From: Candidatus Anstonellales archaeon
GTDB taxonomy: Archaea; Micrarchaeota; Micrarchaeia; Anstonellales; CG1-02-47-40
NCBI GenBank assembly: GCA_038869735.1
Contig: JAWCQO010000005.1
Coordinates: 7,538-71,537 of the forward strand
DNA: 64,000 nucleotides
Reading direction: 5' to 3'
Part shown: positions 16,461 to 63,152 of the stretch, piece by piece
Layout: the number at the start of each line of letters is the position of its first letter
Numbering within the stretch: position 1 is the first letter of the stretch
The notes under the pieces: generated by a model
What the model was told of the DNA's origin: nothing
Database searches by the model: none
The model's input: only the letters and a program-made list of their open reading frames with translations
Position numbers and translations under genes: made by a program

Positions 16461-16685
16461 ATCCATTCCCTCTTCTGGAGCTTGCGGTTTTCTCAAAATC
16501 CTTAAAAACACTTTTTTCTGAAGTTCTGGTGCTTGAATGTGTTTAGACTGGCTCTTTCTTGCGCTATCTAACTTCTAATCTTTGCTTTCTATAGTTGTTG
16601 CTGCCTATAGGGTAATAATATTGCCACAATATTGAAAACGAAGGATATAGGCTTCCTTGCGCTATCTGCCTCTAATCTTTGCTAT

Positions 16686-20981: not shown

Positions 20982-20985
20982 GTAC

Positions 20986-26614: not shown

Positions 26615-29119
26615 TTACATCCCTATTTCAGAAACCTTACGGATTGCGGATGCAAACCCATGCACTGAGGTTATTATTATAATTATCGCGAGATTCGGAA
26701 GAAAAACGGCTTGTGGGAGAAGCAAGGCGAGCGTTTTAAAGGAAACGTGTGGGTCTGCAGCAATATAAAATGAATCAAGAACTTGGCTTGTTAGAGGATA
26801 TGTGTTTGCGAAGAGGGTATAGATTGCTGGAAATATTAAGTAAAGTGAAAAGCAGAGTGCCATAAGATAGTTTCCTGCGGTCCTGGTTGGTGGAAGGACT
26901 CTTAGAAAAATTGCAAAGGATAGGAAGAGTACTATTATTGGTTGGTTTTCTTGAGGGGTGGAAATGAAAAGAAGCCTAAATAGTTCTAACTGGAGTTTTA
27001 TGCTGACTATCATTGGTATGAGCAGGTCTATCATCACTTCCTGGGATTGTGAATACGCTCTCCTGATTGCGTCTTTTGATTCTCCTTTGCCACCTTTAAA
27101 TGGAATGCCAACAAAGAGATAGTTTGTTGCTTTGAGTTGATTAGTAAGACTACCTTCAGTTAGACGTTGAACTTCTGCCGTTCCGATTCTTTGAAGAGAG
27201 TCAAGGTATTTTGTTGAGTAAACGTACATCGTTGTACCTTCCGGGACATTTAAAAATGAGCCTATGACGGCGTTTGAGTTTTCAAGAAAGTTTGTTGCTA
27301 GAATCAAAACGGCAAAAATAGCTGACCAACCAAGATGCACTGCTTCGTCTCTTAGCAATATGTCAAGATGTACATTGCCTCCGAAATATTTTGAGTACAT
27401 AAATGCAAGGGCTATGAGCAGGACGATTAAAAAAAATGCAGAGTGCACCAGTGCAGCGATGTTGCCTGAGCTAGGGCAGTCCTGTTGACAATAGACAGGT
27501 TCTGCTCCTTCACATCTGCCGTTTCCACATTCAAATGATGTTTGGATGCACCTGCAAGAATAGGGGTCGCAACTAAACTTTTCACTACAGTTGTTTTCTA
27601 TTCCAGGATCGCACTCTTCGCCTTGGTCAAGAACTCCGTTTCCACAAAGCATTTGAGGAGGCTGTTTAGTTATTAAAACCTCCTTGCTTTCTTGCGCTGA
27701 GATTATGCTATCTGAATAGATAATCGACGCTTTAAACACCAGTGTTTTTCCTTCTGAGCAGGACTCATAGAGTGGGCATACTATTGACCTTGTTAGTTGT
27801 TGGTCTGCCTGTACTTGTGTAGAGCCACTTAACAGCACTTCGGATGAAGATTCTGAACGGATTACCCACTCCCACTCAAGACTTTGGGGGCTAACACCTT
27901 CTGGAGACGGAATGGTGATCCGTAATGATGGTGATTGTGACTCTGTGGCGGGGTTTGGCGTAATGTCAGAAAGAATTGGAGGGGGATGTTCTGGCACTAA
28001 TTCATCTATAGTAGCTTCGTCAAATGTTTCATTGGAGGTGTAGCGTTCTCCTTGGCCATAAGAAAGAGTTGCATAAAACCTAAGAGTTGAACGATCAGGG
28101 CAACCGTTATCCAGATTGAAGCAGTAGTAGGTTTGATATGAGTAATTTGTTGTTCCTCTTCTGTAGGCCTGTGTTCCTTGATGAATGGTTACACTCATTC
28201 CGTCCGGTTGCGTTAATTCGAAGCGCCAGTTTATAGTGTTGGGCTCAATGATGTTTTCAGGTATTGTGACGATTCCGTTAAAAACGTCTCGGGGATTCGC
28301 ACGTTTTGGTTTAATTGAAACTGATGGTGGGAGGATAGGTTCATAGTATGCATCGTCAGATTGAGAGTAATCAGTGCAAGCATAAACAGAGCATGCCCTT
28401 ACACGAACATGAACGTTTCTTGGTGATGAGGCTGAGCACCCTGGATAGTCTGAGCATCTAAAAGACATTGCTGATTGGCCCTCCATCCATGGAGTTTCAA
28501 AGTCTGGTCCGTCTCCAAGATAGGCAACCCACTTAAATTGATAGATAAAGTTACTTGCGTCTCCCTGTCCGGCAGTGACAAGTTGACATGAGGAGCGGCC
28601 GGATATTTGGTTGCAATAATTTCTATTTGCGACAGTGGCTGAATCTATTCCTGAAGTGTATCCTCTGCATCGAATGTTCCACGGAGGTCCACTTTCGCCT
28701 TCAAGCCCTTCATCTGGGACACAAGAGTTTGAGTTTACATCCCAGTGACAACCGGCGGGTTGCTCTTGAAGAAAATAAGGAGCGTTATAATCGCTATATT
28801 GGGCACTCAAAGAATTACAATTATTTTGGTTTAGGATACTGCATCTTGCTTGTGAATTTTGAGCTCCCTGAGCAAGCTGGCATAATCTGCTGGCAAAATA
28901 ACTCCCTGCTCGGCAGCCTCCGCTCCAGTCATTGCTTATGCTAACTGTTGTTGAATACGAAGGAATTGAAATTAGTGTGAGCTCTGGTTTTTCTGGAATG
29001 CCGGACACAACATTACCGCCTGCACCCTCGTCATCATCACCGATTATGCAATTTTGTGACATAAGAAATTGAGCAGCAAATACTAGAAAGAGCAGGATGA
29101 AACTATAGGGGCTTTTCAT
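26615..29119 (-). CDS. Paralog P2 (834 aa). It has a signal peptide, an about 520-aa Cys-rich N-terminal ectodomain ending in CGNGVLDQGEECD, and the 5-TM core.
   Basis: LCGNGVLDQGEECDPGIENNC. Core AIFLRVLPPTRTAGNYLMALCFSLYLIFP. Tail SAIRKVSEIGM. Confidence 0.7.
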   Translation of the reverse strand: MKSPYSFILLFLVFAAQFLMSQNCIIGDDDEGAGGNVVSGIPEKPELTLISIPSYSTTVSISNDWSGGCRAGSYFASRLCQLAQGAQNSQARCSILNQNNCNSLSAQYSDYNAPYFLQEQPAGCHWDVNSNSCVPDEGLEGESGPPWNIRCRGYTSGIDSATVANRNYCNQISGRSSCQLVTAGQGDASNFIYQFKWVAYLGDGPDFETPWMEGQSAMSFRCSDYPGCSASSPRNVHVRVRACSVYACTDYSQSDDAYYEPILPPSVSIKPKRANPRDVFNGIVTIPENIIEPNTINWRFELTQPDGMSVTIHQGTQAYRRGTTNYSYQTYYCFNLDNGCPDRSTLRFYATLSYGQGERYTSNETFDEATIDELVPEHPPPILSDITPNPATESQSPSLRITIPSPEGVSPQSLEWEWVIRSESSSEVLLSGSTQVQADQQLTRSIVCPLYESCSEGKTLVFKASIIYSDSIISAQESKEVLITKQPPQMLCGNGVLDQGEECDPGIENNCSEKFSCDPYSCRCIQTSFECGNGRCEGAEPVYCQQDCPSSGNIAALVHSAFFLIVLLIALAFMYSKYFGGNVHLDILLRDEAVHLGWSAIFAVLILATNFLENSNAVIGSFLNVPEGTTMYVYSTKYLDSLQRIGTAEVQRLTEGSLTNQLKATNYLFVGIPFKGGKGESKDAIRRAYSQSQEVMIDLLIPMIVSIKLQLELFRLLFISTPQENQPIIVLFLSFAIFLRVLPPTRTAGNYLMALCFSLYLIFPAIYTLFANTYPLTSQVLDSFYIAADPHVSFKTLALLLPQAVFLPNLAIIIIITSVHGFASAIRKVSEIGM

Positions 29120-31162
29120 TTATATCAACCTATAAAGACCAATTATTCTGGTATCGCCTCCAAGAACTTCTGATGTGCCTTTGGTCATTACGACCGTTAT
29201 AAAAACTGTTAAGAGGATGGATATTAGCGCATTTGTGTAAAAGCCAGATATTAGATGTAGAACTGATTCAAGAGGGGAGTAATAGTCTGAAATGAGCTCT
29301 GATTGAGATATTGCTGCATAGTTATAGAGTGCTGGCCCAAATGGAAGCGGGAATCCCTGCACAATTGCAAGGTAAGTTAGCTTTACTATGTTCGCACATG
29401 AAAAGAAGCCGCCTGCAGTGGCAGGATTTGACAGAAGAATACTACATATGAGCCACTCATAGAAGTCTTCTCCGGGTAAAACGAACAGCGCAAATGTAGA
29501 TGAACACACTAAACTTTGTGCTGGTGGACTACCGGGATCAAAATCAGTTGCATTTTTTATTGAGTTTAGGTCTAAGTTTGTTTGTGTATAGGCCCATGAG
29601 GCAAAAACGATACTGGCAGGAAACCAAAGATATGCTCCAATACACACAGCAATAAGGGTAGTACCTACCCTTCTTGTTAATGGAAATGTTCTTAGGGCAA
29701 ACGCAGCTGGTAGAAGAAGTGTTGGGATTGTTGATGAGAAAAAGTAAAGAAGCATTTTTTGTATTGAAAAGGCATATATTATTTTTGATAAATTATCCAA
29801 AGCTTGGAGGATGCTTGAGGTTAGGATAGATAGTCCAGCTGATGGAGAACGGGATATAAATTTATTTGAGTAAAACGGAATAAGTGGAGTGCTTAATGAA
29901 TAAGAAAAACTTGAAATCTTTGAAATGTAAAAGTTTACTTCAGCCAGATAGTTTATTGAATTTCTCGAATTCTGGATAAAGTAATCAATGTGAGAAATCG
30001 CAGCTGAAGTCATATCTGGAGAACCCGTAATCGCACTTGCAAATGTCTCTATTCCAGCTATAGCAATAATGGTGGCAATTATTAATGCTGCACTTGCAAA
30101 AACCTCTCTAAATTCTGATTTTGACCAAACGTGGAGTTGGATTGAGTTGGTAAATTCTGCAAGCATATAGGCAATGGCTGAAATTACGACGGCTGCAAAA
30201 AGACCTATTAGGATTATTGGTGAAATAGCGATTTGGACTGCATTGCCAAATAGGCGCGGGGCTGAAACGCACTGGCAACTTTCACAAATAAAGGCGTCTG
30301 CACATTGGTTGGTGTATTCACACTGTTCGTTTTCTTCGTCAATTATTCCGTTTCCACAATAAGGTGGGTTTGCTCTAGCCACTTCATTTACTGACACACA
30401 AGAACAGGAGAAGCATCTCTGACCGACTTGGCAGTCTGCATCTGAATCGCACTCTTCGCCTTGGTCAAGAACTCCGTTTCCACAGCTGGATGTGAAAGTA
30501 TAGGGATTGAAATCTCTAATTGATTCACATGTGCAATTTTGAGAGCATGTGTAGCCTGGAGCACAATTGTTTGTGTTTATGTCGCATTCCTCTCCAGCAT
30601 CTAAAAATCCATCACCGCACTGTGGTCCAAAAGCTATCTGTTCGGCTGTTGGGCTGCATTGGTTATTTAGGCAGGAATATCCTGCTTTACAATCAGCATT
30701 TGTTAGGCATGATGTTTTGCATGTGCAAGATTGCGAGCAGACGTATGCGCCACAGTTGAGGTTTTGTTCTTTGTCGCATTCCTCTCCAGCATCTAAAAAT
30801 CCATCACCGCATACTGGAAGGGAAGATACGCACTGGCAACTTAGAGGATCGCAGAGTTGTCCGCTTTTGCAGATTATTTTAGAATCAGCCGGGTCACACT
30901 GTTCCCGTCCCGTAATTTTTCCGTCGCCGCATACTGAGTTATCCTGTACGCACTGGCATCCGGGGTTACAGTAAAAGCCGAATGGGCAATCGCTGTGAAT
31001 TTCGCATTGCTCTTGTGGTTGCTCGACTATTCCGTTTCCGCATATGTGAGCAGGGGGGCTACTTTGAGCAAAGAAAACTCCGCTTGAAAGGAGAAGAGTG
31101 AAAAATAGTATGGCGAATATGGAGCGCTTGTCAAAAATCACAAAGCCAAGCATCATAAACAC
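29120..31162 (-). CDS. Paralog P1 (680 aa), first gene of the operon. It has a signal peptide, six DUF4215-like Cys-rich repeats in the N-terminal ectodomain, and the 5-TM core.
   Basis: Repeats CGNGIVEQPQEQCE, CGDGKITGREQCD, CGDGFLDAGEECD x2, CGNGVLDQGEECD, CGNGIIDEENEQCE. Core FALRTFPLTRRVGTTLIAVCIGAYLWFP. Tail LGGDTRIIGLYRLI. Confidence 0.7.
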   Translation of the reverse strand: MFMMLGFVIFDKRSIFAILFFTLLLSSGVFFAQSSPPAHICGNGIVEQPQEQCEIHSDCPFGFYCNPGCQCVQDNSVCGDGKITGREQCDPADSKIICKSGQLCDPLSCQCVSSLPVCGDGFLDAGEECDKEQNLNCGAYVCSQSCTCKTSCLTNADCKAGYSCLNNQCSPTAEQIAFGPQCGDGFLDAGEECDINTNNCAPGYTCSQNCTCESIRDFNPYTFTSSCGNGVLDQGEECDSDADCQVGQRCFSCSCVSVNEVARANPPYCGNGIIDEENEQCEYTNQCADAFICESCQCVSAPRLFGNAVQIAISPIILIGLFAAVVISAIAYMLAEFTNSIQLHVWSKSEFREVFASAALIIATIIAIAGIETFASAITGSPDMTSAAISHIDYFIQNSRNSINYLAEVNFYISKISSFSYSLSTPLIPFYSNKFISRSPSAGLSILTSSILQALDNLSKIIYAFSIQKMLLYFFSSTIPTLLLPAAFALRTFPLTRRVGTTLIAVCIGAYLWFPASIVFASWAYTQTNLDLNSIKNATDFDPGSPPAQSLVCSSTFALFVLPGEDFYEWLICSILLSNPATAGGFFSCANIVKLTYLAIVQGFPLPFGPALYNYAAISQSELISDYYSPLESVLHLISGFYTNALISILLTVFITVVMTKGTSEVLGGDTRIIGLYRLI

Positions 31163-39909: not shown

Positions 39910-40305
39910 ATGGAAGTCGAAAAGGCTCTTGACGTACAGCAGAGAATCGAAAAAATTATTGATGCACTACGGCCAAAGGGGATAAACCAGTTTAGGATAA
40001 TCTGTATGCGGAGCCGGGGTTCAAGTTCAAGAGCCTATGCAAGAATATGGAGCATGCCCAAGATTTGGCAGAAAGCGCTTGACATAGGCACATTTTATGT
40101 TATTGAGGTCTTGAGTGAGAGGTTTGATGGACTGAGTGATGAGGATAAGACAAAGGTATTGATACATGAGCTTATGCACATACCGCAAACGTTTTCAGGT
40201 GCACTCCTTTCTCATGGGCATCGAGGTGGGAGGGGTGATTGGGAACGAGAAGTCGAGATGCTTTATAGGGAATACAGCTCACGCGTAAGATATATGAACA
40301 AATAA
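39910..40305 (+). CDS. Putative zinc metallopeptidase-like protein (HExxH)
   Basis: VLIHELMHIPQTF, a DUF45/SprT-like motif. Confidence 0.45.
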   Translation: MEVEKALDVQQRIEKIIDALRPKGINQFRIICMRSRGSSSRAYARIWSMPKIWQKALDIGTFYVIEVLSERFDGLSDEDKTKVLIHELMHIPQTFSGALLSHGHRGGRGDWEREVEMLYREYSSRVRYMNK

Positions 40306-42141: not shown

Positions 42142-42858
42142 TCAGGGATTTTCTGCTTTTGCAATATAACCGCCTTTTAGGAGCCTATCAAGTGCTTGTT
42201 CAACGCGGACTTCGGAGACGCCGTGTGCCTTCGAAAAGGAACTTATACGTATTCTACCACCATGTATCTTTATCCAATCAAAAACCATACATTCAAGCTC
42301 AGTGTCGGATATTCCATCAATTGAATCAAGACGTTTTTTTAGTATTGAATTTGTTTTTTCAAGTTCCATTCTGATTGAGCTTTCCTTTTCCAATAATTGC
42401 GACATTGTCTTGTACTCTTTAGATAGGCGTCTGCATTCTGCTGTCAATTTTTCACATTGGTTGGAGAGGATTTCCTGCTGGGTGTTTGTAAGCTTAAGAA
42501 GATGGTCTATTGGACCTCTGAGGATGGAATGGGCTTGTGAAAGAGGTATATTATAGCAGTTGCAGATGGCGAGTATGTCAAATAAATTAAGTAGCATTGA
42601 GAGGCGACGCGTGAGGTGTCTCTCTGATTCAGTTGTAAATTCAAGTTCAAATCCAGTGGGCATTAAAGAAAGAGTCCAAAAAGCGCGTGGATTGCCAATG
42701 AAGTCTTGTGATTCTACATGGGTTATACTAATAGTATCTGAACTCTTTAATGGGCGAAAGCCGATGGAGGAGAGGTTCTTAATTAGTTCGTCTGCGTTTT
42801 TTGTGCGCTTGCATTTGAGGCTAATTTTTTCTGTTTGTAATTTCAATCTAATCACCAT
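42142..42858 (-). CDS. Hypothetical protein with a C-terminal winged-helix, co-operonic with the VirB4-like ATPase
   Basis: C-terminal HGGRIRISSFSKAHGVSEVRVEQALDRLLKGGYIAKA; it overlaps the ATPase stop. Confidence 0.5.
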   Translation of the reverse strand: MVIRLKLQTEKISLKCKRTKNADELIKNLSSIGFRPLKSSDTISITHVESQDFIGNPRAFWTLSLMPTGFELEFTTESERHLTRRLSMLLNLFDILAICNCYNIPLSQAHSILRGPIDHLLKLTNTQQEILSNQCEKLTAECRRLSKEYKTMSQLLEKESSIRMELEKTNSILKKRLDSIDGISDTELECMVFDWIKIHGGRIRISSFSKAHGVSEVRVEQALDRLLKGGYIAKAENP

Positions 42859-44347
42859 CCAAAGTTAGTGTTGCGAGTTTATCAGCATCGGCTCCGAGAC
42901 GAGAACGCTGAAGGGTAGAAAAGAGGCTTAAAAGTGATGCCTCTGGCGCTCCGAGTTCTCTGAAGAGTGATAGAATCCGTGTTCTTGCAAAACCATATTT
43001 TTCGAGTAAGGAGACGAGTTCCTGTGCAGGAATAGTGTTGCCAGACAGTGAAAACCTTAAAAGGATCTCTGAAACCTGTTCGTCTTGAAGGCCGAATAAG
43101 TGTAGCTTTCGCCTCAGCTCTTCTTTTTCAAATTCGAATTTCATTCCATCACCCCGCAGAGATAGGAGCACGAAAGGCTCTTCACCATCAATTTTTTTTA
43201 TTATAAACGTTGTCGAGCTCGTTGTTTTTTCTTTCCGTATTAGATGAACTGCGGCTGACCCAACGTTGAAGGTTGATATCTGTTTGGCTATTTCATCAGA
43301 ATAAGCTAAGGAGGAGCGGACGTAGTCTTTGTATTCATGAAGAAGAAGACGAAAGATGAAAATTGTTCCTGCATTTGAGAGGATTGTTTTGCTTATATCG
43401 GTTGGATTTTGCGATGCCACTATGAGAGAGAAGCCGTACTTTCTTCCTTCTCTTATCAGAGAAACGGCATCGCTCTTTTCATCTTGAGCTATTTTCCATG
43501 CTTCGTCAAGCACAACAAACAGCCTTATTTTATCTTCTTGAGTTGGTTGGCTGCGCATTAATTCAATTATGAATTGGAGGATAGTGAGGCCGGCTAGGCT
43601 TCTTGATTGCTCTGAGGGTAAGCTATGGAGGTCTACGCATACTAAGCCTGAAGAAGCAAGCTGTAAAATGCTAGTTGTAGATTTTCCAAAAAAGAAGTTC
43701 TGGTTTGGGGAACATAGTTTCTCAAGTCGGTATATGCATTCTTCAATATCGTCCTTTTTCTGTTCACTTTTTGCTTTCTTCAAAAAAAAGTGAAGATGGT
43801 CAAAAACATCTGCAATTGTAGGGACTCTGTTTTTTGAACATTTATATGCCTGGCGAAAAGCTTTCTCAGTTATTCTTTTTTGTGATGGATAGTTGGAAAT
43901 GTCTGTGAGTATTTCAAGCGCATCTATTATCTGGGTTATTCGTTCCTCCTTTTCTCCTATGCAGTCAAGAAGGTTGAGGCTATGCCCTTCCTTAAAGCTT
44001 ATTATTTTTCCACCAACTTCCCGTACCCATGGCACATATTCTCCTGACCAATCAAGAATTAGTGCGTTTGCGCCCCAAACGAGACTTGCCCTTACCAGGA
44101 ATGTCTTTATAAGGTAGCTCTTCCCGCTTCCGGATATACCTAAGATTACTATGTGTGGATTTGCAAGGAGTGCCGGATTCCAGAAAAATGGGGTTGAAAA
44201 AATAGAGGTTCTGCCAACGTAAATTGAATTTGAAGGGTTGTTTGAAAGGAAGGTAATGGGAGGTTCCTCTTCTGAAAAAAAGATCTGTCTACTATCAAAA
44301 TCAGAGGTAAAAAACCTCTCTAAATTGATATTACCCATATTAAGCAA
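42848..44347 (-). CDS. VirB4/TrbE/HerA-like (DUF87/AAA_10) P-loop ATPase
   Basis: Walker A ILGISGSGKSYLIK; Walker B LFVVLDEAWKIA (the DEAW box typical of VirB4); an Arg-finger region. Confidence 0.75.
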   Translation of the reverse strand: MLNMGNINLERFFTSDFDSRQIFFSEEEPPITFLSNNPSNSIYVGRTSIFSTPFFWNPALLANPHIVILGISGSGKSYLIKTFLVRASLVWGANALILDWSGEYVPWVREVGGKIISFKEGHSLNLLDCIGEKEERITQIIDALEILTDISNYPSQKRITEKAFRQAYKCSKNRVPTIADVFDHLHFFLKKAKSEQKKDDIEECIYRLEKLCSPNQNFFFGKSTTSILQLASSGLVCVDLHSLPSEQSRSLAGLTILQFIIELMRSQPTQEDKIRLFVVLDEAWKIAQDEKSDAVSLIREGRKYGFSLIVASQNPTDISKTILSNAGTIFIFRLLLHEYKDYVRSSLAYSDEIAKQISTFNVGSAAVHLIRKEKTTSSTTFIIKKIDGEEPFVLLSLRGDGMKFEFEKEELRRKLHLFGLQDEQVSEILLRFSLSGNTIPAQELVSLLEKYGFARTRILSLFRELGAPEASLLSLFSTLQRSRLGADADKLATLTLDGD

Positions 44348-44348
44348 C

Positions 44349-45125
44349 TCAGGATGTTTCCTCTTTTATTTCGGTAGCTGTTTCTGGGATTGCGTACTCC
44401 CATTCAAAGCACTTTTTCATTTCTTCTCCGCGTAAAATTGAAACCCGCGCAGAGAGCGCGTTTGCGAATATTGCTTTTATTTCGTTTGCTTGTGAACGTG
44501 ATTTGGTTTGAGCTTCTTCGAAGCTATCACCATATGCTGTTGTTGAGACAAACGCTAACGATTGGATTGGCTTCTCTCCATTTGCAAGTTTGTTTATTTG
44601 TGAGGTCCACATCGAAATCTCGCGCTCGAGAACCGCTATTTGGGCGGCATTTTTGTGTTGATCAAGAAGCAGTTGTGACTTCTTATTCTCAGCCAGACTT
44701 CTCCGTGCCTTTAGCTCATCTAAAACTGATGAGAGGTCTGGATTATAGAGAAGTACGGAAAGTTTGCAGGGTGAACGTATTGAAGATATTGCTTTTGCAA
44801 AGCTTGAGCTGTTGGGTTGGGCTGTTGGTTGTACTGGCTCAAGATTAATTGAAAGAAATGTTGTTGCAAGATAGCCGTTTTGTGTTTTCTTGACAAGAAC
44901 GTCTTGACTCGGCGGTATCTGAAATTCGCCTATTCTCTCCTTTAGCCCTAATCCAAGGAATATGGACGGCATTATTGCATAGCCATACTTCCAAAGAAAA
45001 AAGGAAATTGACAATAAGAAGGCGCAGAGAAACGCAAAGAAAGCTGAGCCGACAGAGATAGATAGAAGGAGGGAAATTGCCGAACCAGCGATACAGATTA
45101 GTGCTATGGACCGTGTGCCTATCAA
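44349..45125 (-). CDS. Membrane protein (2 N-terminal TM) encoded immediately upstream of the VirB4-like ATPase
   Basis: N-terminal double TM; coiled-coil-like C-terminus; 1-nt gap to the ATPase. Confidence 0.5.
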   Translation of the reverse strand: MIGTRSIALICIAGSAISLLLSISVGSAFFAFLCAFLLSISFFLWKYGYAIMPSIFLGLGLKERIGEFQIPPSQDVLVKKTQNGYLATTFLSINLEPVQPTAQPNSSSFAKAISSIRSPCKLSVLLYNPDLSSVLDELKARRSLAENKKSQLLLDQHKNAAQIAVLEREISMWTSQINKLANGEKPIQSLAFVSTTAYGDSFEEAQTKSRSQANEIKAIFANALSARVSILRGEEMKKCFEWEYAIPETATEIKEETS

Positions 45126-47214: not shown

Positions 47215-48390
47215 TTAGGCGTACTTTTCTATAAACTGTCCAATTTTGGATACTGCTTCTTCTATTATATCGGGAGGAGGGAGAAAGGTTATTCTGAAGT
47301 AGAGACCGTTCAAAATTGGGGAGAAACCGCTACCTGGGATAGCTACAACTCCTGTTTCTTCTAGAAGCGAATACACAAACTTTTTGTCGTTTTTGAATTT
47401 TTTTGTTTTTACTTTGATGAATGCATAAAACGCTGCGTTTGGAGTAGGACACTGAAGGGCTGGTATTTTTGATATTGAGCGGATGAGTGCGTCTCTTCTT
47501 AAAAGAAGTTGTTTTTTGACATCTGCAAGATGGGTTGGAGGTAGGGTAAAGGCAGCTAATGCCCCACGCTGCATCTCCCAATTGACAGATAAACGCTGGT
47601 TGCATAGCTTCATTATTGCAGTCTGGAGGTCTTCTGTACCTTCACCATGAAATGCAAGATATCCAACTCGTGCACCGGGATAGATAAAGTTCTTTGATAG
47701 ACCGTTTCCAGAAATCAGAGGAACGTCATGTGAAATGGAGCGTAGATTAATCATGGGTTGCTCGTTGAGTATTAGCTGGTCGTATATTTCATCTGCAATG
47801 ATTGGGAGTGAGTTTTCACCTGCGATGTTAACTATTTCTTTTAGTAGTGAATGAGGGTAGACTGTGCCTGTAGGGTTGTTGGGATTTATGACTACAATTG
47901 CACGGGTTCTCTTATTTACTCTTTTTCTGATCTCATCTGGAATTGGAAGATAGTTTTCATCGCATGGATAGAAGTTGTCGGTTCCTCCCAAAACCCGTGA
48001 TTTTGTATTATACAGCGGATAGCCTGGAGATGGAAGTAGTATATTGTCTCCTGGGTTTAAGAGTGACTGGAAAAGGAAGTCTATTCCTTCGGAGAGTCCG
48101 TTTGTTATAAAAACTGCTTGTGGGTTCACACCTTCCCTTTTAGCTATTGTTTGGCGAAGTTCAGGATCTCCTTCCGAAGGGCAATAACCAGAGTATTTTG
48201 GTTGGTGTAACGCTTCGATGACTGCGTCGGTTATGTGCTGAGAGGGGCAAAAACCAAACAGATTCGGGTCGCCTATATTGAGCCAAATCATTTTCTTTCC
48301 TTTTTTTTCAACTTCCTTTGCTTTTTGGACGATATCCCGAATTTCATAAGTGATATGTGCTACTCGCGATGCAACTCTGATTTTTTGCAT
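47215..48390 (-). CDS. PLP-dependent aminotransferase, class I/II (Asp/Ala aminotransferase-like)
   Basis: NPNNPTG; the PLP-Lys region GNGLSKNFIYPGARVGYL. Confidence 0.85.
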   Translation of the reverse strand: MQKIRVASRVAHITYEIRDIVQKAKEVEKKGKKMIWLNIGDPNLFGFCPSQHITDAVIEALHQPKYSGYCPSEGDPELRQTIAKREGVNPQAVFITNGLSEGIDFLFQSLLNPGDNILLPSPGYPLYNTKSRVLGGTDNFYPCDENYLPIPDEIRKRVNKRTRAIVVINPNNPTGTVYPHSLLKEIVNIAGENSLPIIADEIYDQLILNEQPMINLRSISHDVPLISGNGLSKNFIYPGARVGYLAFHGEGTEDLQTAIMKLCNQRLSVNWEMQRGALAAFTLPPTHLADVKKQLLLRRDALIRSISKIPALQCPTPNAAFYAFIKVKTKKFKNDKKFVYSLLEETGVVAIPGSGFSPILNGLYFRITFLPPPDIIEEAVSKIGQFIEKYA

Positions 48391-48421
48391 AAGCGAAGGT
48401 AATACGACTATAAGTTATAAA

Positions 48422-50677
48422 ATGTTTCTTTTATTGAATCTGGAAAGGATTAAAAGATTAAATTGTTTTGATGCATGTGTGGAGAGAAAAATTTTGTTTT
48501 GGTTGATGTTGCTGCTTTTTCTTTCTTCGCTGCTTGTTGTTTGGGCCAATATCCAGCATCTTGACTTGAATTTTTTTCAGATCAAACAGCCTCAAGAGAT
48601 ATTTGTAAGCTGGCGGGGTGGGGACTCGTTTAATCTTTCAGCAAATTTTGATGGGGAATGTAGCATATGTGGTATAAGGCGTGAGATTCAGAGTGGAGAT
48701 AACCGGTTGAGTTATGGAGGTTGTGAAAGCCGCATTATAGTTGAATGCGCTGATGAGCAAGGGAGGAATAGTTCTCTGGCTTTTTTGCGTCCTAAAATAG
48801 CTGAGGTTATTAACCTAAATACATGGAGTAAAAGGGAAGATGACGGGGGAGCGGGAGTTATCTTTGTTAGTGGGGCAACAAAAAACAGAGGTGACTTGCA
48901 AGTTAGCTACTTTATTGATGGAATACTAAAAAGAAGATTTTTTGAAAAAAACGTCTCTGGGGAGTTTGTTTTTGGTGAAAAATTTAGATTTGATAGGGGG
49001 GAGCACACCTATCAGATTGACGTCAATGGAGTCGTGGTTGAAGGTGTATTTGATTATGAAGGATTAACGGTTCCTGTGTCTCAAGTAATCATTGTTACCT
49101 GCTCTGTGATTTTGGCTCTTGCAGTTGGGAGAGGGCATCTTGAACGAATTTTTAGTATGTTCTGCTTTCTTGCTATTTTTTTTGCTTTTCATTATGAGGT
49201 AGTGTCGCTTTTTAAAGCCGAATTTTTTGTTCCTGCAATAGCTGATTTTCTTGCTATTTTGTTTGTTAGTAGGAAGTTAAGGTGGAGATTTTGGCTACCG
49301 AAGATTGACGAGAAGGAAGTGCTATGGTTTGTATTAGTTGGTTTGGGGCTTGTTGTCCTATCAAACATTTTTATAGGTTCTTTGGATTTGTGGGGGCCTT
49401 ATTATTATAGGCATGTGCAGGCCGTCATGGATAAAGGGGGGGTGTTTTACTCTGATCTCCTGAGTTATTTGGGAAGACCGTTTACATATCCGCCTGCGTA
49501 TTTTCAGTTTGCGGCTGGTCTTACAAGCGCATTTTTTATATCTGATTTTGAAACTGTGAGACTGTTTGAGCATTTACTTATCGCTTCACTCTATTTTGCT
49601 AGCTTATATATGCTTTTTTTTAAGTATTTAAAGAGGGCTAGAGTACTAGGGGCACTTATTACAATCTCTGAAGTATTTGTGTTAGTTACAGCATCAAATG
49701 TAACGCTACATATTTTTGCATATACACTAATGCATATTGCTGCAATCCTTTCTACCGGACGAGGAAGAATTTTTTTATTTATTCTATTAGGAATATCCGT
49801 TGCGGCCCATCCATCATCAATCGTACTTTTTCCATTTTATGCGCTTGTTGCAAACCAATTTGAATTGAAAAAAAGGTTCGTCCTGAAGCTCATAGCGTGC
49901 ATTTTTGGTGGGTTGTTGGTTTGCTTGCCGTTCTACTCTATAATTTTTTACAAATATGGGTTGCCTTATGAAATCGCTCCTTATGAGTGGGGGTATCTTC
50001 TGACTTGGGGATTTGGAGGTATGGTAAATGATTTTGGGCCTCTCCTCTTCCTTGGATTATCTGGTGCTTTTTTGGTATTGCTTGCGCGGCTTGGCTTCAT
50101 TGAAAGGAGGTTTGATGGTGTGGGATTGCCGAAGCTAATTGTTCCAGCAATTCTTATTTTTGTATTTTTTATATTAGGTATTTTTGTCAGCTTTAGAGCG
50201 AATATGTTGTTTGGTGTGATGTCAGCAGCGTTAGTTTCTTCTATCTTTGAAAGAAGTTTATCGGATAAAAAATTATTTTACCTGTTGTGCCTGTTTTGTG
50301 TTTTTAACTTCATTTTGTTTTTTCTTGTTCAGTCAGGACCGCATGCATGGTGCTATTGGGGTGTTGCAAACGACAACTGCTTATTGCCTATGAAATATTT
50401 AGAAAAGTACACTAAAGGAGAAAGCTCTGTTGTAGCAAATCCTCGATTTGGTCACTTGGAGACATATATAGGCAAAAGAAAGATCCTATCTGATTTATAT
50501 GTGGAATATGCAGATAATGAGAAATATTTGGCTGCAGTTGAAGCTTACAAAACAGGGGTTTTGCCAGAAGAATTTGAGGTTGATTACCTCGTTTTGGATG
50601 TTGTTGAAGGAGCAGAACAGGGAGTAAGTTTAGACAAGATATATGACAATGGATTTGCGAGCATTTGGGAAAAGTAG
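48422..50677 (+). CDS. Large polytopic membrane protein: an about 200-aa extracytoplasmic N-terminal domain followed by at least 12 TM. It may be a GT-C-type glycosyltransferase. The longest ORF starts at 48350.
   Basis: Topology only; no confident motif. Confidence 0.5.
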   Translation: MFLLLNLERIKRLNCFDACVERKILFWLMLLLFLSSLLVVWANIQHLDLNFFQIKQPQEIFVSWRGGDSFNLSANFDGECSICGIRREIQSGDNRLSYGGCESRIIVECADEQGRNSSLAFLRPKIAEVINLNTWSKREDDGGAGVIFVSGATKNRGDLQVSYFIDGILKRRFFEKNVSGEFVFGEKFRFDRGEHTYQIDVNGVVVEGVFDYEGLTVPVSQVIIVTCSVILALAVGRGHLERIFSMFCFLAIFFAFHYEVVSLFKAEFFVPAIADFLAILFVSRKLRWRFWLPKIDEKEVLWFVLVGLGLVVLSNIFIGSLDLWGPYYYRHVQAVMDKGGVFYSDLLSYLGRPFTYPPAYFQFAAGLTSAFFISDFETVRLFEHLLIASLYFASLYMLFFKYLKRARVLGALITISEVFVLVTASNVTLHIFAYTLMHIAAILSTGRGRIFLFILLGISVAAHPSSIVLFPFYALVANQFELKKRFVLKLIACIFGGLLVCLPFYSIIFYKYGLPYEIAPYEWGYLLTWGFGGMVNDFGPLLFLGLSGAFLVLLARLGFIERRFDGVGLPKLIVPAILIFVFFILGIFVSFRANMLFGVMSAALVSSIFERSLSDKKLFYLLCLFCVFNFILFFLVQSGPHAWCYWGVANDNCLLPMKYLEKYTKGESSVVANPRFGHLETYIGKRKILSDLYVEYADNEKYLAAVEAYKTGVLPEEFEVDYLVLDVVEGAEQGVSLDKIYDNGFASIWEK

Positions 50678-52390: not shown

Positions 52391-52424
52391 GATTTGAGAT
52401 AGGTTGTTTTAGTATAAAAAGAAG

Positions 52425-52514
52425 CGCTCCGACCGGGATTTGAACCCGGGTTACCGGCTTTCTTCACGAAAATTTGAAAGGCCGGCGTCCTTGACCGGGC
52501 TAGACTATCGGAGC
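52425..52514 (-). tRNA. tRNA-Glu (UUC) with a short (about 15 nt) canonical anticodon-loop intron
   Basis: RNA sequence GCUCCGA..GUCU-AGCCCGGUCAA-GGAC..CCGGC-CUUUCA[AUUUUCGUGAAGAAA]A-GCCGG..CCGGG-UUCAAAU-CCCGG-UCGGAGC-G. Confidence 0.7.
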
Positions 52515-56969: not shown

Positions 56970-57812
56970 CTTCCACTAATCAAATATACGTGGTTGGTTT
57001 TCTGTTCTCTATTTTAGTCAAATATTATTGATTGGTTCTTAATCAGATATGGTTGGTTCTCTAATTGTTTGGTTTGGTTGTTGTTTGTTAGTCTAGAAAT
57101 TCTGGGTTCTTTTTCTATTTTGTTTTTTGGTTGTAGTCTATTTATAAAGTAAACCTAAACTATTATTAATATTTTATGTAACTATAGTTACATTATGTTA
57201 TTATATTTCTACGATTTGAAAGCAAAAGATTTAAGACTATATAATAACATAAAACGCCGATTTTATTACGAACTATCAACATCAAAACTCACACAAGCCT
57301 TTTTTAGAACAAAATCCGTCTTAGTAGTTCCAGATGAATTAGAAACGTATGCAGATAATTTTTTTAAAAAATATTCAGAATATCTAGAAGTTTACAAAGC
57401 TCGAACACGCCTCATCCTTCAAATAAACTAACTCCGTATTCTCAACTACACATAACATATAAACAACAACATATAAACAACAAGCGCAGTTTCTAATAGA
57501 ATAAACAAAAACAGAAATCACAACCAAACCCAACCAAACACTCAACAAATATCCCAACTCGCCCATCTATTAAAGCTAACAAAAACTATACTCCTTCTTT
57601 AATTATTCCTTCTTTAATTATATTACCTTCTTAAATAAACAAAAAATTAATTATATTACCTTCTTAAATAAACAAAAAAAGCAAAACAATAAATTATAGT
57701 TCAAAGTACTTAGTTAAGTATTCGGCGAGACACTACTAGACACTAATTAATTGGTAGGTGTTAAACAACTAAGTAGGGTTAAAACAATTAGTGGAAGCGT
57801 CCCCCCACACTA

Positions 57813-58192: not shown

Positions 58193-58804
58193 ATGAAAGG
58201 GTTTTTTACATTCTTCTTAATCTTTGTTTTTACTTTCTTACTCCTACTTATTTCCACATCACGACCAACCTATCAAACAAACCCATACTTAAAAATAAAC
58301 ACTTTGGCAACAGAGAAAATAGCATTTACCTCTTCCAATATACGTCAAGCATTTGTTAAATACCTTTCAAAAAATATGCTCCCAATCTTACTGGGGAGAG
58401 TATCTCCAGATCCAGAAACGCGCGCAATTTCAGAAGCAAGGCTTCTAACACTTCTCTCCACATTTGAACTTATCGCCGAGAATAATGATCTTCTTAATAT
58501 AGATTTATGGTGTGGAACAACTCCTCATACTGAGCTTAACCAAATAGCCCTAGAATCAACAAAACAACGAAAACCAATTAAATGCCAAAACTGCTACGAC
58601 CTATCCGCACCAATCTGCACTAATTATATCAAAACCGACCTATCATCGAAAACAGCGCAACTTTCCAATTTTCAACAAAATCCACTTATTTTTGGTGGTT
58701 TTGGTTTAACAATCTGTTCTAAAAAAGGAGAAATCTGTAACGTATCTAAAATTCCCCAAGAGCTGGTGATACATCTTGAAAGCGCAGATCTCGATGGAGG
58801 TTGA
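58193..58804 (+). CDS. Pilin-like protein with a short N-terminal signal (MKG then hydrophobic), candidate class III signal peptide
   Basis: MKGFFTFFLIFVFTFLLLLIS. Confidence 0.45.
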   Translation: MKGFFTFFLIFVFTFLLLLISTSRPTYQTNPYLKINTLATEKIAFTSSNIRQAFVKYLSKNMLPILLGRVSPDPETRAISEARLLTLLSTFELIAENNDLLNIDLWCGTTPHTELNQIALESTKQRKPIKCQNCYDLSAPICTNYIKTDLSSKTAQLSNFQQNPLIFGGFGLTICSKKGEICNVSKIPQELVIHLESADLDGG

Positions 58805-59093
58805 GCTCTCTCTTCTCATACTCACAATACTCATACTTTTCTTTATCAACACAGCTACCATTCACATATCCTCCATAATCTTAGCTCAACGGCAGCTCAC
58901 CACTGATTTCATGGTTGAAGACGCAGCAGAATATGTTGGCGCCTTTGCTCTGCTACCAGGAATATCCTATACACGAATCTTACCTCCAATAAAGACAAAC
59001 ATTACTGATATCTGGTTAAACAATTCTAGAACAAAGAGCATAACACCTATATTTAATGGGCGGGTGTTATCTGATGAAAAAGAGCGCGTATAA
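58776..59093 (+). CDS. Type IV pilin-like protein (class III signal peptide)
   Basis: MKA followed by QISMEVELSLLILTILILFF: Gln at +1 and Glu at +5 after a KA cleavage site. Confidence 0.55.
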   Translation: MKAQISMEVELSLLILTILILFFINTATIHISSIILAQRQLTTDFMVEDAAEYVGAFALLPGISYTRILPPIKTNITDIWLNNSRTKSITPIFNGRVLSDEKERV

Positions 59094-59499
59094 CCATAAT
59101 TACCTAGGCTTCATGACGCTAGAGCTATCCATCTCCTTTCTACTTGTGCTGCTGAATTTTATGGCATTCGTTCAATATTGTGATAAAATATTAGCTGTAG
59201 ATAAAGATATTTTGGACGAATACACCAAACTTCGTAAGATCTCTGATCTATCAACATTCTTAGTAAAGAAGGGGCTTGTTGAAGAGCATCCCACCTATTA
59301 CAATACACACATCCTCTCCCCAACAAAACTATCCATAATCGAGCAACTCCAGGAAGATGCGCTAAGCCAACTTAACCTCAACTCAGTAAAAATCTATATC
59401 TCAACAACTCCCCCACCAGAAAACCAACATCGCATCTGCGTAACTCGCATCGTCCTTCTATCAAACAAACCATCAACCCTCATTGTGTGTGGTAATTAG
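59056..59499 (+). CDS. Type IV pilin-like protein (class III signal peptide)
   Basis: ...NYLG followed by FMTLELSISFLLVLLNFMAF: Gly at -1, Phe at +1, Glu at +5. Confidence 0.5.
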   Translation: MGGCYLMKKSAYNHNYLGFMTLELSISFLLVLLNFMAFVQYCDKILAVDKDILDEYTKLRKISDLSTFLVKKGLVEEHPTYYNTHILSPTKLSIIEQLQEDALSQLNLNSVKIYISTTPPPENQHRICVTRIVLLSNKPSTLIVCGN

Positions 59500-59872
59500 T
59501 ATGCTTTCATTCGAAGCCTTATTCTCATACATGACACTCACCTCTATCATCCTCCTATTACTTCTTACTCCCACCCCCCAACCAGACTACTCCCTTCAAT
59601 CATACAATCTACTTTTAGACATAATCACTATACTTGAAAAATCTTCAGCTATTGAAGAAATCATAACGAACGCACCGAATCCCAACGTAAAAAACAAGCT
59701 TGATGAGGTTACTCAACTCAGTGGATTTTGCTTGACAATCGAATCATCATATATTAATGTATCTGGATGCCACAACCCAAGCCCGGAAATCTACTCTGAA
59801 AGCGCCATAATCATAACAAAAGAACAAACACCACTCACAATTCGTTTCTCACTACAAAAAGAAAAATTTTAA
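59483..59872 (+). CDS. Small protein with an N-terminal hydrophobic helix (possible minor pilin)
   Basis: MLSFEALFSYMTLTSIILLLLL. Confidence 0.35.
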   Translation: MCVVISMLSFEALFSYMTLTSIILLLLLTPTPQPDYSLQSYNLLLDIITILEKSSAIEEIITNAPNPNVKNKLDEVTQLSGFCLTIESSYINVSGCHNPSPEIYSESAIIITKEQTPLTIRFSLQKEKF

Positions 59873-60189
59873 ACAAACAAACCAAAACTTACAACATGCA
59901 CATCTCAAAAAGATCTCTTATAACCTACTTCTCAAAACTGGGCATAACCATAATTAAAGACCCCAAAAACCCCTCCATCTTTCTTGTTTACCCACCAGGA
60001 AAGCCTCATGAGGAAGAGACAGCCAAATATCTACTCCTAATCCCTGATAAGGCGTACATTCAATTTACAAAACTCAACTATTTTATAAATATAGCAGGAC
60101 GCCTTCGCAAGGGCCTCCTCATCCCAACTTCTCAAAAACCACCATTCAATTTTGTGTTTGTGCAAAGAATAACCAAGTGGTAATGAAAG

Positions 60190-60714
60190 ATGACCTATTG
60201 TATCAAATGTGGAAGGCTAACTGAGCCTTGGGATTTCGCATACTACGCCCGCGACTTAATGTGTATCCCCTGCTATAAACAATACATCGACTCAGTAAGA
60301 AAGATGCGTTGTGCACTATGTGCCATTCAGATTTTACCCGAAGATGTGGTTTATCTCAAAAAAAGGCCACTATGCAGGCAGTGTTATAGTGAAGAAATTG
60401 AACGCATCACCACAACATCATGTAGGGGGTGTAAACGAATAGTCAAAAAATACGAACCCAGTCACAAACTTCCTCAAGGCGGCATCCTTTGCGACGATTG
60501 TTTCAGGAAAAACGCCATTAAACTTAGAGCAAGAGAATGCTATCGCTGTTTTGCACCTCTTGGGCCAAACAAAAAGATTTTAGGAGACGAAGTTCTTTGC
60601 GGCGCATGCTATCTAGAAAAAGTAGAGTTCAATTCACTTAAAAACAAATTTCTCTCAACAATCCGTGCAATATTATCAACACAAACCCTTCCAGCAGACG
60701 CCGGAACCGATTAA
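60190..60714 (+). CDS. Multi-zinc-ribbon protein (at least 7 CxxC pairs)
   Basis: CIKCG, CIPCY, CALCA, CRQCY, CRGCK, CDDCF, CYRCF, CGACY. Confidence 0.5.
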   Translation: MTYCIKCGRLTEPWDFAYYARDLMCIPCYKQYIDSVRKMRCALCAIQILPEDVVYLKKRPLCRQCYSEEIERITTTSCRGCKRIVKKYEPSHKLPQGGILCDDCFRKNAIKLRARECYRCFAPLGPNKKILGDEVLCGACYLEKVEFNSLKNKFLSTIRAILSTQTLPADAGTD

Positions 60715-60819: not shown

Positions 60820-61800
60820 TCATTGGCGCTTAAACATCTTTATAACATAATCCAGAACATCAGAGTTTGCGTACCTTTTACAGACAAAAACTCGTTCTTT
60901 CCCTCTTCTATGGTCTCTCCAAATACAAAATTCAAGAAGAAATTTTTTCAAACTATTCTTATGCTTTTTTTTGAGCTTCTCGTAAGCTTTATTAGCTATT
61001 ATCTCCACCCCCACCCTACACCGTTCCTCATCATAAAGCTCTGGTCGCATCTCATTAGCCAACCACAATGCTTCCTCAGGATGGCTTTCCAGATACCTAA
61101 ACAACATCTCCCTAACAGAAGCTTTAACCACCTTACCTCTACCAACACCAACGGCAACTGCCCATTTTTTATCAACTGCAGGATCAACATCAGAACTGTC
61201 AATAGCCCCCACAACTGCCTCCTCTTTCTTTAAAAGAAGAAGCGTTACAAACAACTCACTATCAACATGCCCAGTACAAAATTTACGAAGAGTGTTAATA
61301 ATCTCAAAACATTTATCTTTCTCACCAACCATAATTAGAGGGCTAATTTCACCCATAATAACCCCCGCGATTTTCTCAACAACCACTCTTTCATTATCCA
61401 TATTACTTACTTTCTCTGTAGACCCGACTCCCTTCTCAAAAAAATCTTTCCAAAGTCCCAATTGCCCAACTTCTACTACCGGTCCGTAATCCCTCCATCC
61501 GGACCGCTCCAGTACCTTCCCTTCTCCTTTTTTTGATACGTTGAGCTCTCCTACTTTCTTAGATACAAGAGATAATGCAGAAAGAAGTCGCTCCCTGCTA
61601 AACTCAGACAAAAATCCTCTCAAAAAGACATCCCCAAGCCTTCCAAGAGCAATCCATTCTAAAAAATTGAACGATTCATCAGCCAAACCAGTTAAACTCG
61701 CCCCACCCCCTTTCTCCAAGTTTGATTTACTAACAACACTTAAAAAATCCACAAATGTCCCACCTATTGTCTTTTTGCATTCTTCATATCTTGGATACAA
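60820..61800 (-). CDS. Hypothetical protein (326 aa)
   Basis: ORF; no family call. Confidence 0.45.
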   Translation of the reverse strand: MYPRYEECKKTIGGTFVDFLSVVSKSNLEKGGGASLTGLADESFNFLEWIALGRLGDVFLRGFLSEFSRERLLSALSLVSKKVGELNVSKKGEGKVLERSGWRDYGPVVEVGQLGLWKDFFEKGVGSTEKVSNMDNERVVVEKIAGVIMGEISPLIMVGEKDKCFEIINTLRKFCTGHVDSELFVTLLLLKKEEAVVGAIDSSDVDPAVDKKWAVAVGVGRGKVVKASVREMLFRYLESHPEEALWLANEMRPELYDEERCRVGVEIIANKAYEKLKKKHKNSLKKFLLEFCIWRDHRRGKERVFVCKRYANSDVLDYVIKMFKRQ

Positions 61801-63152
61801 CTCTCAAGCTCAACTCCTCCCTTCCACATACACCTCCCTTCAACACACCCACATCCACCAAATTTTGAATAGCAAGCATACTCTGGTCGCATCTCACAAG
61901 TTGTTATTGTATCGTTTTTCCCTACCCTTACACACAACTGTCCGGAGCAACCAGCAACAACACAATCCATGTCAACAACACATTCAGGTTTAAAATAATC
62001 GCGACATTCTTGTGCAAGCTTGCTGTCAACAATTCTATCACAATAATCAACCTTCCCGCTTCCAATCGCAACTTGCCCCCAACAATCGTCCTTCATCTCA
62101 GATACAAAATCACATAGCTCGGCTCTTCCACCAGAACTACCAGCCAACGCCACATAACACTTATCTTTTCTATCTTTACTCCTAATCCGCTCACAATACT
62201 TTTCATCATTATTCACTATGCCCCTATCATAGTAGCAGCGGTCTTTTTCCTCATGCCCAACAAATTTTTCACACCCAATATAATTGTCTAATCGCTTGAG
62301 TACGGCTAAAAACATCTCCTCAACTTCTAATTCATCTACTAAAGTTTCGGGAGCTGCAACTTCAATAACTCCCTTAGTAAAGTTCTTTACAACTGATATT
62401 GATGAGCGCTGCTGGCCACCCACTGGCAAATATCTCATCTCATAATAAATCGGAATTCCGTCCCCTCCAAGACACATCACCCAACTAAAATTAGAGAAGT
62501 GGGTAAGCGCAGGACTCGTAGCAGACATACCCAAAATAGCCAAATCCTCAACAGACAGCTTTCTATAATCTATTGCATACTCCAACTTCTTACAGCTACG
62601 CCCTTCATATTCCCTCTCCTCAATTTCATTAGTAAAGTTTAACACTCCCTTCTTTATAAGAAATCCGAGTTTGTCTCTCTCCTTAGCCGCAACTAAATCA
62701 AAAAACTGATTCCTCTGGTTTGAAAGAAAATCAAGTAAAAGATTGCTTGAGTTCGGGCGCGCACATTTCCTTATCTCAGAATAATTTATACATACATATT
62801 CATTCCACCCATCAAAATACACGCTTCTCTTAGATACAGCATCCTCTATCAAAACAAATCTAAGACTTCCATTGCGCATAATTATTTTTTTTTGAGGAAG
62901 TCCAATAGATTGCTCTTCATATTCTATTGTATACTCATCCATCTTTCCTAGTTTATCATACGCATCCAACAACAAGCGAGCCTGAGCAGACATTGCGGTG
63001 CTCCCGCTATCCCCACCCAACCCATCACGCCAACCAAAATATATTGTGAGGAGTACGCCAATCAATACAGCTAACACAAGTAAAAGAATGAGAAAACTAA
63101 ACTTCGGAGTTCCCGTTGTGCCAGATTCCTTCACCACAAAAATCCCCAGCAA
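61764..63152 (-). CDS. N-terminally membrane-anchored extracellular protein with a Cys-rich C-terminal module
   Basis: N-terminal TM FSFLILLLVLAVLIGVLLTIYF. C-terminus ECRDYFKPECVVDMDCVVAGCSGQLC...CGCVEGRC. Confidence 0.5.
   Translation of the reverse strand: MLGIFVVKESGTTGTPKFSFLILLLVLAVLIGVLLTIYFGWRDGLGGDSGSTAMSAQARLLLDAYDKLGKMDEYTIEYEEQSIGLPQKKIIMRNGSLRFVLIEDAVSKRSVYFDGWNEYVCINYSEIRKCARPNSSNLLLDFLSNQRNQFFDLVAAKERDKLGFLIKKGVLNFTNEIEEREYEGRSCKKLEYAIDYRKLSVEDLAILGMSATSPALTHFSNFSWVMCLGGDGIPIYYEMRYLPVGGQQRSSISVVKNFTKGVIEVAAPETLVDELEVEEMFLAVLKRLDNYIGCEKFVGHEEKDRCYYDRGIVNNDEKYCERIRSKDRKDKCYVALAGSSGGRAELCDFVSEMKDDCWGQVAIGSGKVDYCDRIVDSKLAQECRDYFKPECVVDMDCVVAGCSGQLCVRVGKNDTITTCEMRPEYACYSKFGGCGCVEGRCMWKGGVELESCIQDMKNAKRQ

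Follow-up and report, generated by a model that had tools for sequence, protein, structure and literature searches.

A conserved stand-alone cassette of archaeal pilin-like genes with a leaderless member in Micrarchaeota

The question raised by this locus is what is encoded by four small consecutive genes whose products begin like type IV pilins, in a stretch of DNA where no pilus machinery was found. The stretch, called the window below, is the whole 64-kb sequence that was analyzed. It belongs to a metagenome-assembled genome of 'Candidatus Anstonellales' (Micrarchaeota, DPANN), a tiny archaeon of the symbiotic type, Anstonellales being an order of Micrarchaeota (PMC8561730). An archaeal 23S rRNA gene, tRNAs and the genes of TBP, TFE, aIF2 and aminoacyl-tRNA synthetases are all present in the window, which identifies it as archaeal chromosome. 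An earlier note on this DNA had proposed minor pilins or pseudopilins of a system encoded elsewhere. The pilin reading gained support, mainly from the comparison of orthologues, and we give a probability of about 0.65 to the view that the four genes, named here A, B, C and D, are an operon of four pilin-like proteins of the type IV filament (TFF) superfamily with their machinery elsewhere.

Gene A (58193..58804, + strand) is the largest of the four. It starts with ATG, encodes 203 aa and opens with a predicted class III-like leader, MKG (58193-58201). Its product is encoded identically on the 149-kb contig JAWCMN010000001.1 (GCA_038849675.1), where NCBI names it a hypothetical protein of 'Candidatus Anstonellales archaeon'. 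Gene B (58776..59093, + strand) encodes 105 aa from a TTG start, with MKA (58776-58784) as predicted leader. Gene C (59074..59499, + strand) encodes 141 aa from the ATG at 59074 and has a 12-residue predicted leader, MKKSAYNHNYLG (59074-59109); the ORF list had placed its start at 59056 instead. Gene D (59501..59872, + strand) encodes 123 aa from the ATG at 59501 and is without leader, its N-terminus being MLSFE; an alternative TTG start at 59483 would give 129 aa.

The genes are tightly packed. A and B overlap by 29 nt and B and C by 20 nt, and the stop of C is 1 nt apart from the start of D. Shine-Dalgarno-like sequences were found 7 nt 5' of A (GGAG), 5 nt 5' of the TTG of B (GGTGAT) and before C (GGGTG). 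A-B-C-D is one operon. Two gene callers differ over the start of B, one taking TTG 58776 (105 aa) and the other ATG 58794 (99 aa), and the motif MKA/QISME (the slash marks the predicted cleavage site) is present only with the former. We retained TTG 58776 because of the GGTGAT 5 nt upstream and because the motif is kept in all orthologues; among these, TTG and GTG starts lying within the end of A are frequent, in confirmation of the TTG start chosen here. No ORF longer than 55 aa lies beneath A-D on the - strand, and the idea of non-coding or antisense artefacts of a C-rich strand was rejected in view of protein-level conservation across 19 loci. Two further ORFs, E (59896-60183) and F (60190-60714), were considered as members of the cassette and rejected: their conservation extends no further than the closest relative, locus L012.

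The N-termini of the four products were then considered. Each has a single strongly hydrophobic segment in its first ~30 residues, with a maximal 19-residue Kyte-Doolittle mean of 1.95 to 2.59, and by hydropathy a hydrophobic helix follows the cleavage-site position in all four proteins. A short, basic leader with Gly or Ala at -1, as expected of class III signal peptides, is found in A, B and C and is absent from D. The earlier description of four + strand ORFs with a charged start followed by a hydrophobic helix therefore holds for the ORFs, their coordinates and the helices, but not for the start of D, which has no charged leader. In B, cleavage is predicted after Ala3 and would give a mature QISME with Gln+1, Ser+3 and Glu+5, the archaeal 'QxSxE' pilin signature. 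In C, removal of MKKSAYNHNYLG by the predicted cleavage after Gly12 would leave FMTLE with Glu+5; Leu stands at -2 instead of Lys or Arg. The two motifs that had been pointed out from the sequence, MKA/QISMEVEL and LG/FMTLELS, were thus recovered as MKA/QISME in B and YLG/FMTLE in C. The start of A, MKG/FFTFF, is class III-like, with predicted cleavage after Gly3.

How often would such motifs occur by chance? Of the 205 stop-defined window ORFs of at least 60 aa, 4 satisfy a strict class-III-like rule, and three of the four are unrelated to the cluster. A narrower rule (G/A/S-xxxxE) gives 4 matches among the scanned window ORFs, two of them in this cluster. A lone motif thus matches by chance in ~1.5% of window ORFs, so that a single match is weak evidence, and the window taken by itself offers little. 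It is the clustering of the motifs, and above all their conservation in orthologues, that makes them more than chance.

Orthologues were sought with A by scanning 1.84 billion cluster representatives exhaustively with HMMER, which returned 18 full-length relatives of 152 to 257 aa with 21-38% identity; a word-indexed homologue search gave no match but A itself. All named members of the A family that were seen are hypothetical proteins of Micrarchaeota. Cassette loci were collected from the contigs of the A relatives, from a scan of JGI metagenomes with the C-family alignment, and from the window. They number 19 with the window included, two of them (L010 and L029) being identical over the cassette. 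In the 18 other loci A is followed by B-C-D wherever the contig is long enough. The downstream genes encode ~100-122, 118-143 and 103-131 aa, and overlap or abut as in the window. A scan for close relatives with the neighbouring TFE gene yielded one irrelevant bacterial match only.

Three types of neighbourhood were observed. In the window and in L012 ('Micrarchaeota archaeon CG1_02_47_40') the cassette is found with Tmk-PyrB-PyrI-Trm56-TFE-PRC barrel genes. In seven loci (L006, L008, L010, L014, L016, L023 and L029) it directly follows rpoE(Rpb7)-spt4. In the third type S6e/eIF2gamma or a PMT-type glycosyltransferase gene adjoins it: S6e-eIF2gamma in L018 and L026, eIF2gamma also in L024, and PMT in L019, L024 and L026; L021 was assigned to this type by the TrbC-like gene upstream of its cassette. 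The internal order is kept while these three unrelated contexts change, which indicates that A-B-C-D is a functional unit and moves as a unit. Outside the N-terminal segments, identity to the window proteins is 13-30%, with 44% for D in L012. Judged by sequence, the four families are seen so far only in Micrarchaeota, unannotated and new.

The cleavage-site motifs persist across these loci. B has [KR][GA]/Q-x-[ST]-x-E in all 18 loci, and Q+1 and E+5 are the sole invariant columns of its alignment. C has [GA]/[FYVI]-x-x-x-[DE] in 18 of 18, with leaders of 5-12 residues and Lys or Arg at -2 in 16 of the 18. The alignment consensus of A is M[KR]G/[FY]xSF, and the full locus table reads M[KR](K)[GA]/[FYA]xx[FL] throughout; an acidic residue at +5 is never present in this family. 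Loss of the cleavage sites in orthologues had been named beforehand as a finding that would tell against the pilin reading, and what was found is their retention at every locus for B and C, together with the motif of A.

D behaves differently. In 14 of 16 loci it begins M-x-x-[LIVF]-E, and one extra residue is found in L018 and L024. Its Met1 corresponds to pilin position +1 and its Glu to +5, followed by the hydrophobic helix, so that Glu or Asp at +5 is present in B (18/18), C (18/18) and D (14/16, counted from Met1) and in none of the A proteins. A leader is impossible for D where a stop codon lies directly upstream (L006, L021) or where there is no upstream start codon (L016, L019). With hhalign, KA/Q of B, LG/F of C, KG/F of A and M1 of D fall in the same register, and residues 2-5 of D lie on positions +2 to +5 of C; the probabilities are low, as short hydrophobic segments would lead one to expect. 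A pilin-like cluster with class III signal peptides, as the locus had been described, is accordingly supported for A, B and C by their conserved sites, but D is not such a protein.

Family assignments and structure were examined next. Pfam gave no match at E<=1 for A-D or E of the window, NCBIfam gave for the same proteins only noise matches far below cutoff, and scans of all four orthologue sets against both collections found no family at threshold. The family matched by most B orthologues is PF04021 Class_IIIsignal (DUF361), in 4 of 7 and below threshold (best E 0.12); in NCBIfam the B family has no match to a pilin or archaellin family. Profiles of the four families retrieved nothing relevant among PDB sequences. 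Conserved residues outside the N-termini include cysteines. In A, Trp106 is invariant and C131, C134, C142 and G171 nearly so, in a pattern WCG...KCxxC...C. In C, C122, R125 and C139 are invariant, both cysteines being C-terminal, and D keeps C77 and C90 in most orthologues.

An AlphaFold2 model of A built on an 18-sequence alignment has a pLDDT of 91.5 and a pTM of 0.78. In it a membrane helix (residues 2-22, pLDDT >90) is followed by a loop, by three helices spanning 31-96 and finally by a beta-sheet accompanied by two helices; the loop parts the first helix from the next one (31-61), unlike the one continuous alpha-1 helix of pilins. In structural matching the best match of the model is pilin-like (GspK/PilX), and PilV, ComP, PilA4, TTHA1218 and PilA5 occur within the top 52, while Foldseek against the PDB returned nothing significant. 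For C, a single-sequence AF2 prediction gave an N-terminal helix at residues 3-52 in a poor model (pLDDT 47.7). The structure prediction that had been suggested as a check for a pilin fold thus gave a mixed outcome, with a pilin-like best match for A on one side, and a null Foldseek search, a broken helix in A and a poor model for C on the other. We regard the predicted fold of A as supportive of the pilin reading, not conclusive.

The closest known kind of protein is the archaeal DUF361/PF04021 pilin (Epd of Methanococcus maripaludis; 'system 1' or clade 1 type IV pili (T4P), with several minor pilins per locus). This type has been reported in DPANN archaea (bioRxiv 10.64898/2026.04.22.720090). 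Like these pilins, B combines in 18 loci a basic leader ending in Gly or Ala, Gln+1, Ser/Thr+3, Glu+5 and a hydrophobic helix of ~20 residues, and the cassette likewise consists of small proteins encoded by several different pilin-like genes in tandem. Unlike them, B matches the family only below threshold, no relatives of the globular domains of the cassette proteins are detectable beyond Micrarchaeota, the cassette never adjoins an ATPase, a TadC-like platform or an EppA-type peptidase, and one member is leaderless. The locus is a conserved stand-alone cassette, unusual for its leaderless member, and its products are of a known kind, pilin-like proteins with archaeal class III signal peptides. 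The bacterial quartets GspH-I-J-K of the type II secretion system and FimU-PilV-W-X of T4aP, and also Neisseria PilX/PilV, are analogues of the four-gene cassette; A resembles GspK as the largest of four and in being without Glu+5. For a staggered helical bundle that caps the filament, as in the GspHIJK-like complex, the analogous points are only gene order, the number of four genes and the missing Glu+5 of A. By analogy, the four proteins may form an initiation or tip complex like those of GspH-I-J-K and FimU-PilV-W-X, given four genes of which the largest lacks Glu5 and has GspK/PilX as its best structural match.

Where the machinery could lie was considered on two scales. T2SSE, T2SSF and Peptidase_A24 have no occurrence in the 64-kb window, according to Pfam searches of 46 ORFs, which include every ORF of at least 190 aa not otherwise covered, and to precomputed Pfam assignments (7-31 kb and 48-69 kb). 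This agrees with the earlier remark that the window is without prepilin peptidase, PilB/FlaI ATPase and PilC/FlaJ. A few window proteins are without any family, for example a 775-aa polytopic protein at 48350-50677. In ~19 loci, no TFF ATPase, platform protein (T2SSF/FlaJ/TadC) or peptidase was found within ~6-10 kb of the cassette. In the micrarchaeon Mia14 one FlaK-like peptidase and two T4P systems are reported, and the key components are common to many Micrarchaeota (PMC5498576); T4P genes are also reported in MAGs of the Anstonellales lineage (PMC8561730). Stand-alone pilin loci are documented, linkage to the TFF machinery being common and not obligatory (PMC4858521), and in archaeal TFF systems such loci and sets of at least five minor pilins are normal (PMC4858521; bioRxiv 10.64898/2026.04.22.720090).

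In the mechanism we propose, each protein would be inserted into the membrane through its N-terminal hydrophobic helix. The basic leaders of A, B and C would be cut after Gly or Ala by a class III signal peptidase that is homologous to PibD/FlaK/EppA and has its gene elsewhere, and D, whose initiator Met already stands at +1 with Glu at +5, would remain uncleaved. The four proteins would associate via their N-terminal helices into a heteromeric initiation or tip ('minor pilin') complex or a short pseudopilus, to be extruded by a TFF ATPase and a platform protein from another locus. Alternatively, the main filament subunit could be B, given its small size and canonical QxSxE N-terminus. Stabilisation of the extracellular domains is the most likely function of the conserved cysteines (four in A, two in C and two in D). 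The set probably serves in adhesion at the cell surface or in contact with a host.

A different reading takes A-D as lineage-specific envelope proteins, N-terminally anchored or Sec-secreted and unlinked to type IV filaments, and their motifs as constraints of membrane insertion or of signal peptidase I. Several results fit it: the lack of family membership at threshold, the absence of assembly genes beside the cassette in every locus examined, the negative Foldseek search with A, and the chance motif matches in the window. The N-terminus of A, for which a Sec signal peptide or a signal anchor is another possible reading, counts in this respect against the pilin reading; it is Sec-like in its MK followed by a long hydrophobic stretch and STS. 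We consider this envelope-protein reading unlikely.

The cassette could also be an accessory module of a VirB2/TrbC-type pilus (Ced/Ted-like, conjugation-related) or of a system driven by a double-AAA+ ATPase anchored in the membrane, and not of a PilB/FlaI-type TFF machine. The archaeal Ced/Ted DNA-import pili are made of VirB2-like pilins (PMC9905601). In five loci (L018, L019, L021, L024 and L026) a small protein that has two TM helices besides a signal peptide is encoded directly 5' of A, and in L018 its gene overlaps A by 1 nt; against PF04956 (TrbC/VirB2 pilin) the copy of L019 scores 29.2 bits (cutoff 27.9) and that of L018 23.6 bits. Directly after D, L018 and L021 encode a protein of 876 and 895 aa, respectively, that carries two AAA domains and a membrane domain at its N-terminus, and the window itself contains a HerA/VirB4-like ATPase gene at 42848-44347, 14 kb from the cassette. 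However, several of the loci with the TrbC-like gene share a neighbourhood (S6e/eIF2gamma in L018 and L026, PMT in L019, L024 and L026), so that this gene order may have arisen once, in an ancestor. Next to the cassette, the gene is missing from the window, from L012 and from all loci of the rpoE-spt4 type (the window and at least 8 others), and tblastn of it against the window found no homologue. Genes resembling VirB4 or VirB6 were not found next to the cassette. Cleavage motifs of the class III type, moreover, are a hallmark of TFF and not of type IV secretion systems, and a text search of published Ced/Ted descriptions (PMC9905601) found no such proteins mentioned. This makes the reading improbable in our view. 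About as doubtful is a broader version of it, a phylum-wide Micrarchaeota module of three processed pilin-like proteins and one leaderless protein forming a fixed heterotetramer, a module that in one lineage or more would act together with a membrane-anchored double-AAA+ ATPase and a pilin of the VirB2/TrbC type; this would be a hybrid apparatus for contact or for DNA or cargo transfer in host interaction, and not a conventional T4P.

There is also little probability, as we see it, that D (possibly with others of the set) is an unprocessed membrane-anchored stator or alignment protein, comparable to ArlF/ArlG (FlaF/FlaG) or PilN/PilO, and not a filament subunit. ArlF and ArlG are membrane-anchored by an N-terminal helix and carry an archaellin-like domain; they are kin of filament subunits and are not cut by the prepilin peptidase. 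D resembles them in its N-terminal-helix anchor and in not being cleaved by a peptidase, of which a leaderless protein cannot be a substrate, and in L024 its homologue lies ~3.4 kb from A-B-C, hence less tightly bound to the set. It differs from them in the pilin-type Glu5 counted from its own Met and in belonging to a pilin-like cassette and not to an arl operon; no sequence or profile match was found. The Glu at position 5 in 14 of 16 loci is pilin-specific and unexpected for a mere anchor, and so is the alignment of D in one register with B and C at their mature N-termini. A link of the cassette to the archaellum was rejected, arl context being found in none of the loci.

The cells of Micrarchaeota and other DPANN archaea are attached to those of hosts, a contact in which pili are commonly suspected to take part. 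The cassette recurs across the phylum. Read as an operon of TFF pilin-like proteins, it offers four candidate subunits of the cell surface, for which cleavage sites are predicted and conserved cysteines known, to be looked for in cultivated Micrarchaeota. The leaderless D, if this reading of it is true, would represent an unusual route to a pilin-like subunit without prepilin peptidase, and a VirB2-like pilin gene found repeatedly next to the cassette is a hint that the two filament types may be connected. Should none of this hold, the cassette would be one more divergent stand-alone pilin locus.

The surroundings of the pilin-like cassette (genes A to D) were compared between the window and related loci. 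In one group of Micrarchaeota loci, a small TrbC/VirB2-like pilin gene (PF04956) lies immediately 5' of A-B-C(-D). We found it directly before the cassette at 5675-6001 in L018, 1714-2121 in L019, 1-234 in L021, 8623-9000 in L024 and 508-879 in L026 (coordinates internal to each locus). The encoded proteins have a signal peptide and two TM helices, and the loop GAETRARASVWAT is conserved. A second small ORF is present in L024 (5606-6001); its N-terminus is signal-peptide-like and appears similar to that of the TrbC/VirB2-like gene.

At the other edge, gene D is directly followed in two divergent loci by the gene of a large protein (876 aa, L018 7604-10234; 895 aa, L021 2073-4760) that combines two Cdc48-like AAA domains with a polytopic membrane domain at its N-terminus. 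The D homologue of L024, a locus of a high-GC lineage, begins MMIKTLEA and is detached from A-B-C: it is found at 13798-14229, about 3.4 kb downstream of them, past the eIF2gamma and RFC genes. In the window, D is followed after a 23-nt gap by gene E (95 aa, no family) and, 6 nt after E, by gene F (174 aa), both within 59896-60714. F contains about eight CxxC pairs and gives weak matches to LIM/NMD3-type zinc ribbons. Among the cassette loci compared, E and F are kept only in L012, the closest relative; they are probably co-transcribed passengers.

About 0.9 kb 5' of gene A, the composition of the window changes abruptly. Within 57000-57750, a very strong GC skew of +0.1 to +0.57, which does not depend on gene strand, flips suddenly to values of -0.3 to -0.55; the sign changes at about 57200-57300. 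The flip is located in an AT-rich stretch (26-30% GC) which carries a tandem repeat of 33 nt x2 (57614-57679), further tandem repeats of 15 nt x2 and 14 nt x2, and GTTTGG-rich inverted arms (57066-57089 / 57515-57540). A misassembly is disfavoured because L012 is syntenic across the same point. We consider this region a candidate origin or terminus of replication. None of the genes identified within the 64-kb window is orc1/cdc6.

Concerning RNA genes, the window contains a complete archaeal 23S rRNA gene (13546-16462), which neither a 16S nor a 5S gene adjoins there. A 90-nt gene on the minus strand (52424-52514) was scored as tRNA by Rfam; ARAGORN could assign it no anticodon, and it is therefore probably an intron-containing archaeal tRNA.

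A HerA/VirB4-like P-loop ATPase (42848-44347, minus strand; DUF87, AAA_10 and TraG P-loop matches) has as neighbours on the same strand (42142-45125) a 258-aa protein with a long hydrophobic N-terminal segment and another of 238 aa that gives a weak wHTH-like match. Among otherwise housekeeping genes, a 131-aa ORF (39910-40305) matches the Pfam family "Putative phage metallopeptidase" (PF18894, E 7e-21).

Several large proteins are also encoded in the window. In a 775-aa protein (48350-50677, plus strand), which matched no family at all, the hydrophobic segments number about 12 or more. A 462-aa protein (61764-63152, minus strand), syntenic in L012, carries an eight-cysteine "heavy_Cys"/CGP-CTERM-type domain. 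Finally, seven large genes (680, 834, 766, 427, 356, 346 and 1431 aa) stand in a row at 16686-31162 on the minus strand. Their products have signal-peptide-like N-termini and Cys-rich segments, most with several TM-like hydrophobic segments, and Pfam gave no family except one DUF4215 match. The block is also found in a second MAG, GCA_038870215.1 (L017), and may represent a lineage-specific envelope complex.
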